Part shown: positions 15,609-40,296 of the stretch, in pieces | How positions within the stretch are numbered: position 1 is the first letter of the stretch | How the letters are laid out: every line of letters starts with the position of its first letter | NCBI RefSeq assembly: GCF_963921235.1 | Contig: NC_086097.1 | Coordinates: forward strand, 134,852,001-134,916,000 | Direction: 5' to 3' | DNA length: 64,000 nucleotides | From: Mobula hypostoma | Lineage: Eukaryota | Position numbers and translations under genes: made by a program | Notes under the pieces: generated by a model | Databases searched by the model: none | What the model was told of the DNA's origin: nothing | Seen by the model: the letters and a program-made list of their open reading frames with translations, nothing else

Positions 15609-15676
15609 TTTTGATGATCTACACTGATTCATGAGGTCAATATACTGGTTCCTTCCAATTCCCAGAAGCCTAAGAC
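15609..15676 (-). CDS. FAM91A1: FAM91A1 exon 5 (CLRLLGIGRNQYIDLMNQCRSSK)
   Basis: TAG acceptor, GTAAGT donor, 68 nt; conserved GIGRNQYIDLMN motif. Confidence 0.97.
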
Positions 15677-16099
15677 CTACATGAAAAGAAAATCCACATC
15701 AATTAATAGTGTTTAAAATGTTTAAAAGCACCTTCAAGATTTACCTCTGCTCTTTCTCATTTCAGCCAGGCTTTGATAAATTGTCACATGCACCAAGGTA
15801 CAATGAAAACCTTGTCGTGCATACCATTCAGATTAATTCATTTCAATGTTGAGGAAGTACATGATAAAACAATAACACAACATAGAATGTTACAGCGAGA
15901 GAAACTACAGTGCAGATAGACAATAAGGTGCAAGGTCATAAAGAGGTAGATATACTAGTTATTCAAAAGCCTAAATTTTATTAAAACAGCTGCAAAAACT
16001 GAAACAACAGGAATTCTGCAGATGCTGGAAATTCAAGCAACATACATCAAAGTTGCTGGTGAACGCAGCAGGCCAAGCAGCATCTATAGGAAGAGATGT

Positions 16100-16135
16100 A
16101 GTCGACGTTTCAGGCCGAGACCCTTCGTCAGGACT
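16100..16135 (-). ncRNA. Minimal type I hammerhead ribozyme motif (minus strand, sense to FAM91A1 pre-mRNA)
   Basis: Reverse complement is identical to the 16169-16204 motif. Confidence 0.7.
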
Positions 16136-16168
16136 AACTGAAGGAACTGAAGAAACCTTCCTTCAGTT

Positions 16169-16204
16169 AGTCCTGACGAAGGGTCTCGGCCTGAAACGTC
16201 GACT
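16169..16204 (+). ncRNA. Minimal type I hammerhead ribozyme motif (plus strand)
   Basis: AGUC-CUGACGA-AGGGUCUCGGCCU-GAAA-CGUC-GACU: helix I AGUC/GACU, CUGANGA and GAAA boxes, GUC triplet, palindromic ACGU in place of helix III. Confidence 0.7.
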
Positions 16205-17145
16205 GCACCTCTTCCTATAGATGCTGCTTGGCCTGCTGCGTTCACCAGCAACTTTGATGTATGTTGCAAAAACTGAAGTCACATTTTTGAAACCTAAATA
16301 TGCACATCTACACTAATTTTAGCATAGCAAAAGATGACTAAACACATAAGGCATTTTTTAATGCCATTTTTTTTTTAAGGCATTTTTTAACATTTTTAAG
16401 GTGACAAACAGCTTACTAAAGAACGAGGTATTAGAGAGATTCTTAAAGAGCCAGAGATATTTTGGAGGTGAATTCTTGAGCTCAAGATGTTTAAAGTACT
16501 GGAATCAACAGTGGCTCAAAGGAAATTGAGTTTGTCTGAAGCCATAATTAGGAAAGCACAAATCTTAGGTTATAAAGAGGTGTTTGCAGAATATACATTT
16601 CTGTTTGGTAATCCAATATTGACACTAATAACATAACTAATGGCATACTTTGAGTCTTTCAGTTATTTTCAAACTACGTATTTGAATATTATGGTTAAAT
16701 ATGACCAAATCCCTAGAGAGGATGGGTTTAGTCAAATTCTGAAATAGCCTCAAGAAGTTCCAAATTTTATATTTGCATAGTTACGACATTCATGTGAGTA
16801 TATGGCATAAACTGTTATTATTGTGACTGCTACAGCAGAGTGTATTCTGCAGTACTTCGATCTATCTCTCAGCACAAAGTTTTCTTTGTTTTTAAAACAA
16901 TAACTATTTCAAATAGTTATTTTTCAAAATTAGTTTTCAGTCATTGACCTCATCTTCGATTGCAGAATACTGAATACTGATTCTAGTCTTTAAAGTTTAA
17001 TTATCTAAATTCTGCTGCATGTGTTCTAACTTATACCAAGTCCCACTCTCACATTTGTTGTTTGTGAGAAGTACTCTTCTAAACTAACAGTTAAAAACAC
17101 TTGCTCTTCTAACAGATGGTTTAACTCCACCACCAAAAGACTTAC

Positions 17146-17203
17146 AATCAGCAGCTGTGAAGTTAGGTAGCGAATCATAACTTTTTTCACTGTTCATGAT
17201 ATC
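17146..17203 (-). CDS. FAM91A1: FAM91A1 exon 4 (DIMNSEKSYDSLPNFTAAD-)
   Basis: TTTTAG acceptor, GTAAGT donor, 58 nt; contains the conserved SYDSLPNFTAAD motif. Confidence 0.97.
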
Positions 17204-18390: not shown

Positions 18391-18398
18391 GAAGGTAG

Positions 18399-18572
18399 GC
18401 CTGCTGAGTTCGCCAGCAACTTTTGTGTGTGTTCCTAGTCTATATGCATTTTTCTCTCAGAAAAATAGAGGGCTATGGGTAACCCTAGATAATTTCTCAG
18501 ATAAGGACATGTTTGGCACAGCTTTGTGGGCCGAAGGGCCTGTATTGTGCTGTAGGTTTTCTATGTTTCTAT
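18399..18572 (+). mobile_element. Short composite retroposon: Penelope pLTR piece plus CR1 3' end
   Basis: Flanked by GAAGGTAG direct repeats (18391-18398 / 18573-18580); ends TTCTATGTTTCTAT. Confidence 0.6.
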
Positions 18573-19464: not shown

Positions 19465-20230
19465 CCACAAGTCCATAAGATAGGAACAGAATTAGGCCAT
19501 TTCGCTCATCGAGTCTGGTCCACCAGTTAATCGTGACTGACCCATTTCCCTCTCAGCCCCAATCTCCTGCTTTCTTCTCGCAACCCTTCATGTCCTGACA
19601 ACTCAAGAAACTATCAACCTCTACCTTAAATATACCCAATGACATGGCCTGTGGCAATGAATTATACAGATTCACCGCTCCCTGGCTAAAGAAATTCTTT
19701 TAGCCTGCTGAAGGGATTTGGCCCAAAATGTCGACTGTACTCTCCCCCCCTCCCCCCCCATAGATGCTGCCTGGCTTGCTGAGTTCCTCCAGCATTTTGT
19801 GTGTGCTGCTTGGATTTCCAGCATCTGCAGATATTCTCTTGTTAAAGAAGTACCTCCTCATTTCTGTTCTAAATGGAAGCCCCTCAATTCTGAGGCAGTC
19901 CTTTTGTCCAAGGCTCCCCCACCATTGGAAACGTCCTCTCCGCATCCACTCTATTGAAGCCTTTCAACATTCAATAGGTTTCTATGAGATTCTGCCTCAT
20001 TCTTCTGAATTCCAGTGAATACAGGCCCAGGGCCATCAAATACTCCTCATATTTCAAGCCATTCAATCCTGGAACCATTTTCATAAACTGTCTTTGAACC
20101 CTCTCCAATATTAGCACATCCTTTCTTAGATAAGAGGCCCAAGACTACTCACAATACTCTGCAAGGCCTCAAAAGTGCTTTATAAAGCCTCAACATTACA
20201 TCCTTGCTTTTATATTCTAGTCTTCTCAAA
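19465..20230 (-). mobile_element. CR1 3' fragment interrupted by a Penelope pLTR piece (about 19700-19835)
   Basis: CLRIEGLPFRTEMRRYFF on minus strand; insert CCTGCTGAAGGG..GCATCTGCAGA resembles the 16 kb element. Confidence 0.75.
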
Positions 20231-28270: not shown

Positions 28271-28754
28271 GGTTGTTGGCAGACCCACATAAGGTGCATT
28301 ACCGCCACCTACTGAATTGGAGTGTGGAGCAAAGAGTCACCCACAAAATACACCCCTCCAAAAGGAAAACTCAAATGACATCAAAAAAGTCTAATGCTTT
28401 ACAGAAATATACACTACTATACATTACAATGGCAGTGATATCCTACAACCTTTCCATGTTGAACTGTGTCTGTTCCAAAGATCTCAATTTAGCAATTGAA
28501 TGTTTCCTTTGCACCTCATACGAACTGCATATCTTGACAAGGGCCCTCACTACAAATGCCTGCATCATGCATACTAATTCTGACAAGGTATTATTCAACC
28601 TAATATGCAAGTGTGTAAGTATAACTTCTTCCCTCCTTTTATACACATTTTCCAGTTGCGTTCCCACCAGTTTGCTCCCTTGTTTCCTTCAACCCCAACG
28701 TGGGCAAGAACCTGTGGTGGGATTCTACCATTAAACATACCTTTACCTACTCGC

Positions 28755-29096
28755 CCCATCTCCACTTTCCACAGGGACCGCTACCTCCATGATTCCCTTG
28801 TCCACTTGTCCCTCCCTACCAATCTCCCTCCTGGCACTTACCCCTGCAAAAGCCCTATACCTACCCATTCATCTCCTCCTTCACCTCCATTCAAGTGCCC
28901 AAACAGTCCTTCCAGGTGAGGCAACACTTCAGCTGCAAATCTGCTGGGATTGCCTATTGTGTCCAGTGCTCCCAATGCAGCCTCCTCTACATCGATGAGA
29001 CCTGTCATAAATCGGGGGACCGCCTTGTCAAGCACCTCCACACCATCCACCAAAAGCGGAGCTTCCTGTTGGCCAAACACTTTAATTCCAATTCCT
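28755..29096 (+). mobile_element. Penelope-like element GIY-YIG endonuclease remnant
   Basis: PKQSFQVRQHFSCKSAGIAYCVQCSQCSLLYIDET..GDRLVKHL..LAKHFNS: GIY-YIG (IAY..YID) with a CxxC/His motif. Confidence 0.85.
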
Positions 29097-40159: not shown

Positions 40160-40296
40160 ACGCAAGAGATTCTGCAGATGTTGGAAATTGCAAGCAACGC
40201 ACACAAAATGCTGGAGGAACTCAGCAGGTTAGGCAGCATATGGCTGGAAATGAATAAGCAGTTAATAATTTGAGCCAAGACCCTTCATCAGGACCT
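40160..40296 (-). mobile_element. Penelope pLTR fragment with degenerate hammerhead
   Basis: GATTCTGCAGATGTTGGAAA..CACACAAAATGCTGGAGGAACTCAGCAGG..GACCCTTCATCAGGAC, similar to 16004-16146. Confidence 0.75.

Follow-up and report, generated by a model that had tools for sequence, protein, structure and literature searches.

Penelope-like elements (PLEs) of metazoans carry minimal type I hammerhead ribozymes in their pLTRs, with a short helix I, an extra base after A9, a palindromic 15.2–16.2 and no helix III (Cervera and De la Pena, 2014, PMC4209133). In the accessible part of that report a single minimal motif gives no detectable cleavage and dimers give low cleavage, and dual motifs lying 100–700 bp apart on opposite strands are already known from these elements. 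The insertion units of endonuclease-positive PLEs are described as head-to-head inverted repeats with a target-site duplication and a one-sided tail of 30–40 bp (Arkhipova et al., 2013, PMC3846280; Craig et al., 2021, PMC8557442). Junction palindromes with an inverted pLTR and one tail also appear there, and for the inverted pLTRs the available sections of both papers favour self-priming or endonuclease resolution. For PAc, a Poseidon element of Anolis, the portion of Frangieh et al. (2024, PMC11167929) at hand describes a protein that cuts and extends both target strands, starting at two positions that delimit the tail, together with a hammerhead near the ORF start. On these accounts the inverted pLTR, the one-sided tail and hammerheads on opposite strands are all already published.

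The window analysed here, the whole stretch of 64 kb, holds an insert at 15991–16277 that combines these features. The two hammerhead motifs in opposite orientation are confirmed as real: the 36-nt cores lie at plus 16169–16204 and minus 16135–16100, where the initial annotation had placed them, are identical letter for letter and stand 33 nt apart, and the cuts it had predicted agree with the present reading of the motif. The features of the locus, in the direction of transcription of the host gene, are as follows.

17146–17203, minus strand: fourth coding exon of FAM91A1 (58 nt), on the upstream side of the host intron (AG/GT boundaries, continuous frame)
16265–16277, no strand: target-site duplication, right copy, its first 3 nt common to the arm end
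16158–16267, plus strand: tailless pLTR arm, antisense to FAM91A1 and first transcribed in the pre-mRNA (98% identical to the pLTRs of a full-length copy)
16169–16204, plus strand: core of a minimal type I hammerhead in antisense to the gene; a cut is predicted after 16200 (motif match)
16147–16157, no strand: hairpin centre, an 11-nt loop in which about 10 nt nearly repeat the start of the adjacent arm
16100–16135, minus strand: core of a minimal type I hammerhead in the sense of the pre-mRNA; a cut is predicted after 16104 (motif match)
16037–16146, minus strand: tail-bearing pLTR arm, sense to FAM91A1 (96–97% identical to the pLTRs of a full-length copy)
16004–16036, minus strand: one-sided 33-nt tail of the pLTR, coding early codons of the element ORF (positions 111–143 of the arm in full-length copies)
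15991–16003, no strand: target-site duplication, left copy, 13 bp (identical to 16265–16277; single copy in organism B)
15609–15676, minus strand: fifth coding exon of FAM91A1 (68 nt), on the downstream side of the host intron (Pfam FAM91_N, E=8.4e-09)

The exon boundaries bear out the assignment to intron 4 of FAM91A1, counted from the exon with the ATG. The gene lies on the minus strand and the intron runs from 17145 to 15677, with the insert about 870 nt from the donor and about 310 nt from the acceptor, and the minus core is in the sense of the pre-mRNA, as had been proposed. Three exons match Pfam FAM91_N, while the 24-aa first exon gave no match in the Pfam search; from the FAM91_N family we take the gene to be FAM91A1. 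The two arms, 110 bp each, are 98% complementary and disagree at two places, 16096/16208 and 16099/16205. Folding of the entire insert gives −234 kcal/mol, where 200 shuffles give −80.9 (z −31). The near-copy of about 10 nt at the hairpin centre looks like a templated insertion. At 16085 on the minus strand, within the sense arm, a pyrimidine run followed by AG resembles a 3′ splice site, which the predicted hairpin would bury. A different high-copy repeat with very high contig depth lies at about 15744–15951, immediately left of the insertion.

Each core is built of a 4-bp helix I, CUGACGA, a 13-nt helix II region, GAAA, a C and the GUC triplet, so that the features of a minimal type I hammerhead are present: the CUGANGA and GAAA boxes, an NUH triplet, a helix I of 4–5 bp, helix II, the extra base after A9 and a palindromic remnant of helix III. 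Helix I can take a fifth pair, U-A in the minus copy and U-G in the plus copy. The G10.1–C11.1 pair is absent, the core-side pair of helix II being G-U at the window, as it is at 134 of 156 sampled sites (G-C at 21). In the features listed above the motif matches the min-HHR, whose helix II, as given in the available text of PMC4209133, begins with G-C; the window helix II has 4 bp and begins with G-U, and the window cores are far closer together than the published dual motifs. A loose hammerhead regular expression found one other match with three of four pairs in the 64-kb window. The covariance-model search suggested in the initial annotation lent no support, with no hammerhead family among the 10 Rfam matches at E≤10 between 14000 and 19000; sub-threshold matches to miRNA-like hairpins were rejected as artefacts of the palindrome. 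Nor did the conservation and covariation check give support: within the genome none of nine pairs changes on both sides in 28 sequences (chosen from 56 distinct ones plus the two window copies), and the score was 0.098 against 0.116 for shuffled data, a comparison of low power in one young family in which the invariance of the boxes is uninformative because the search pattern required them.

The parent element is an endonuclease-positive PLE, with pLTR, ORF, tail and target duplication all in place. Counted as exact letter patterns, the core has 32,886 copies in the genome of 3.48 Gb and a looser form 127,594, against none for the backwards-pattern control of either; the figure for the looser form lies far above those of 4,000 in coelacanth and 9,000 in Xenopus in the accessible part of PMC4209133, obtained by different search methods. 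Upstream of many cores lies coding sequence for GIY-YIG and RT. A search with the N-terminal part of the element ORF gave 150 listed places, 15 of which hold an open frame of 1043 codons. Eight regions were fetched, seven with the 1043-codon frame and the eighth with shorter frames; all seven carry the repeat on both sides as partial tandem pLTRs, the upstream core being whole in six. The full unit measures about 3.5 kb. At one locus, L100, a single ORF of 1042 aa encodes RT and, at its C terminus, a GIY-YIG endonuclease, with the motifs DKG, YIDD, GIY-YIG and a CCHH-like motif; its Pfam scores fall below the curated cut-offs, both for RVT_1 (E=3.4e-05, 24.1 against 29.6) and for GIY-YIG (E=0.0011, 19.7 against 22.6). 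Residues 909–917 form a CX4CX2C linker that fits the CX2-5CxxC motif between RT and EN, which in the available text of Craig et al. (2021, PMC8557442) marks both the Neptune and the Nematis clades. By this linker and the C-terminal GIY-YIG endonuclease the element appears Neptune-like, although Nematis shares the linker; Neptune and Poseidon are widespread across vertebrates (preprint).

The element ORF starts at arm position 104 in full-length copies, and its ATG stands at 16043–16041 (minus) in the window insert. The position of the hammerhead near the ORF start and the two preferred 3′ ends bounding the tail are shared with PAc, which belongs to a different clade and whose ORF, in the part of PMC11167929 available, starts inside the ribozyme rather than, as here, about 60 nt after the cut site. 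Like the published PLE units the window insert has head-to-head inverted repeats, a target duplication and a tail on one arm, over the first ORF codons; unlike them, as far as the accessible text of PMC3846280 and PMC8557442 goes, it has no ORF. The locus was rightly described as a pLTR insertion of Penelope type bearing cores of the minimal type I hammerhead, but the idea of an intact mobile cassette is not supported: the insert is the 5′-truncated end of the 3.5-kb unit. Older relatives lie elsewhere in the window, namely a Penelope ORF fragment at 28719–29090, 71% identical to the young family and some 700 nt upstream of the start codon of FAM91A1, and pLTR relatives of 82–85% identity at 18398–18436, 19757–19843 and 40169–40239, the two intronic ones being antisense to FAM91A1.

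Comparison with a relative (organism B) dates the insertion. One organism B contig aligns to the window from 16265 on, and its 30 shown unaligned letters are those of window 15961–15990; organism B thus has an empty site with a single 13-mer, in a flank that differs from the window at 15 of about 1,040 letters (about 1.4%). Organism B alone is informative on this point, two other data sets (X10 and X11) covering 67 nt of the flank and none of it, respectively. Because this site is empty, the insert is recent in its lineage, but it is not among the youngest twins. Its arms diverge by 2.4%, at the median of 2.2% for 44 twins, of which 10 have identical arms, so that the earlier description of the insertion as fresh holds for the lineage and calls for caution within the family.

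The window locus is not special, being one of about two thousand equivalent hairpins. Head-to-head twin cores occur at 631 loci with spacers of 0–19 nt, 853 with 20–50 nt and 440 with 51–81 nt, 1,924 together, a lower bound counted on exact 17-nt motifs with spacers up to 81 nt. Per nucleotide of spacer the three bins hold 31.6, 27.5 and 14.2 loci, with no sharp pile-up of turning points up to 81 nt. Among the first 100 exact cores listed, eight pairs no more than 1 kb apart stand head to head, and none stands tail to tail. For closer analysis 49 of the 853 twins with 20–50-nt spacers were taken, the first listed on contig C1 with exact motifs, a non-random sample that includes the window and leaves out C1:111312808, which has the same matched text as L056 and looks like a duplicate. 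None of these twins has two tails, 43 have one and six have none, against 9.4 two-tailed twins expected if the arms were independent (P ~3e-5); tailed and tailless ends are both common, 14 of 30 sampled exact cores carrying the tail. Of the 31 twins long enough to be scored, 23 have arms that match at each of the six polymorphic positions, compared with a mean of 3.3 and a maximum of 11 in 10,000 shuffles. The tail arm reaches further upstream in 15 of the 43 one-tailed twins, the tailless arm in 16, and the two are equal in 12. Tailless ends fall at positions 92–101, as in single copies.

The centres of the 49 twins comprise 27 insertions, 18 cases of microhomology and four blunt joins. Exact target duplications flank 26 of the 49 (the L106 row of the table of junctions and target duplications was disregarded as an artefact due to an empty reference); these are not microsatellites, and 22 are of 12–15 bp, compared with 8–10 bp in the rotifer in the accessible sections of PMC3846280 and PMC8557442. 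Overlaps at the junctions, 1.15 and 0.96 nt, lie slightly above the 0.38 nt expected by chance. The copies at L006, L013, L014, L025 and L028 start no more than a few bases away from the opening letter of helix I. L085 (611–1528) holds two same-strand units of 460 bp, each with a core and 90% alike, a retrozyme-like tandem in which dimer cleavage in cis is possible. At L080 (2425–2484 and 4447–4477) an inverted copy has a 29-nt tail joined directly to RT coding sequence and overlaps the end of the other arm by 31 nt, an arrangement resembling a template jump beyond the second primer.

The window insert is most probably a dead, 5′-truncated, head-to-head end repeat of this abundant PLE, formed with both cut target ends likely priming on one RNA and carrying hammerheads predicted to be inactive. 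How the twins arise is a more tentative matter. Since the polymorphic positions agree in so many twins, the arms either come from one template or have been homogenised, and we infer from tails, reach and variants, together with the two-strand extension reported in vitro, that twin priming on one RNA is the simplest reading. Rather tentatively, with odds a little short of even, the hairpins can be taken as a record of such priming, in which both strands of a 12–15-nt staggered cut prime one RNA at the two start sites bounding the tail and the rear enzyme displaces the front one or jumps past it. At the window the element endonuclease would have cut the two target strands 13 nt apart; one target 3′ end would have primed at the tail start and the other about 33 nt upstream on the same element RNA, and both cDNAs would have stopped 11–12 nt beyond helix I before a short templated insertion joined them. 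The antisense arm, which is made first in the pre-mRNA, would zip the sense core into a duplex of 110 bp. A limited literature search, covering titles and the starts of abstracts, found no paper on twin priming by Penelope. The possible, though less probable, alternative is an inert by-product of fold-back, in which a cDNA primes itself, or an antisense template does (as proposed in the available text of PMC3846280), and the asymmetry of the tail comes from endonuclease resolution of an intermediate (suggested in that of PMC8557442). Fold-back too accounts for variants common to both arms, as gene conversion could, and among the centres there are perfect palindromes and others with short snap-back copies (L071, L075, L050). 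A simple fold-back from a tail-primed cDNA, however, requires the tail arm to be at least as long as the other, and it is the tailless arm that reaches further in 16 of 43 twins, although the record of which arm was longer could be obscured by deletions arising afterwards at the centre. The tail arms of L009 and L014 are missing some or all of the core region that the other arm has, in L080 the tail runs straight into upstream ORF sequence, and the ends of tailless arms are positions that single copies also use; all of these speak against fold-back. It is very unlikely that this short palindrome is a mobile, non-autonomous unit in its own right, resembling a MITE or retrozyme and copied whole. 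Three twin pairs at different sites have identical centres (L050/L051, L058/L060, L046/L065), which may be hot spots of joining or whole-palindrome copying, but these recurrent centres sit at short self-complementary words and the other 43 of the 49 all differ, the centre of the window twin being unique within the sample. Moreover, a non-LTR retrozyme, according to the part of bioRxiv 10.64898/2026.07.22.740005 available, needs at least two consecutive same-strand units with complete hammerheads, and the window has no tandem same-strand cores, its cores lying on opposite strands. Least likely of all, and very improbable, is a fold-back artefact of assembly or sequencing: palindromes can be read artefacts, and among the assembled read contigs none bridges the left junction or the whole insert, but the exact 13-bp duplication has its matching empty site, the right junction is crossed without differences by contigs of two runs from one sample (organism A), the arms differ at two places and similar centre joints occur in independent contig sets.

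Twin priming or fold-back would leave an inert hairpin; a very unlikely further reading gives it a function, the sense hammerhead cleaving FAM91A1 pre-mRNA when freed by editing of the duplex, by the element protein or by a partner transcript in trans, with the mirror arm as a damper. The boxes of the core are intact, partner RNAs could be supplied by tens of thousands of copies, and protein-assisted cleavage is published for the anole PLE; the same report, in the text available, finds no RNA-seq ends at that element's cut site (PMC11167929). Energetics argue against this reading. In a folding model with the antisense arm transcribed first, the sense core is paired to the mirror arm at P≥0.997 as soon as it emerges, which upholds, as a prediction, the sequestration proposed in the initial annotation; the hammerhead helices form at P<1e-19 with the mirror arm and at ≤0.08 without it, and the active dimer reaches −12.1 kcal/mol against −30.9 for the best alternative, in models that omit the tertiary contacts of the core. 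Because no same-strand partner is present for dimer cleavage, the sense core would be idle even without the mirror arm. The site is also absent from organism B and hence not conserved: like the amniote intronic hammerheads such as that of RECK, the window motif is a type I hammerhead sense to a host intron, but those are conserved across species in the accessible text of PMC6155905, whereas this one is of the minimal kind, is missing from a close relative and pairs with a mirror copy. The empty orthologous site speaks against a domesticated intronic hammerhead. The window hammerheads are thus likely, on the modelling, to be inactive passengers, and sequestration by the mirror arm probably silences something already silent. 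The notion of a special self-silencing arrangement of the host intron is not supported, since the layout recurs at at least 1,924 places and is already published, and it is weakened further because a minimal hammerhead on its own should be inactive even if the mirror arm were missing; the apparent self-silencing is a by-product and not a device. The likeliest real effect on the host is predicted to be a dsRNA hairpin open to A-to-I editing.

The window locus itself matters little, being recent, not conserved and likely inert. What it represents is of wider interest. If true, twin priming would account in a single step for the head-to-head polarity of these hairpins, for a tail that is strictly on one side and for the variants their arms share, and would replace the model of antisense self-priming. 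The twin family constitutes a large natural data set on the inverted ends and one-sided tails of Penelope elements, and the approximately 127,000 hammerhead-like cores of this genome allow one to ask whether selection removes sense-strand copies from introns.
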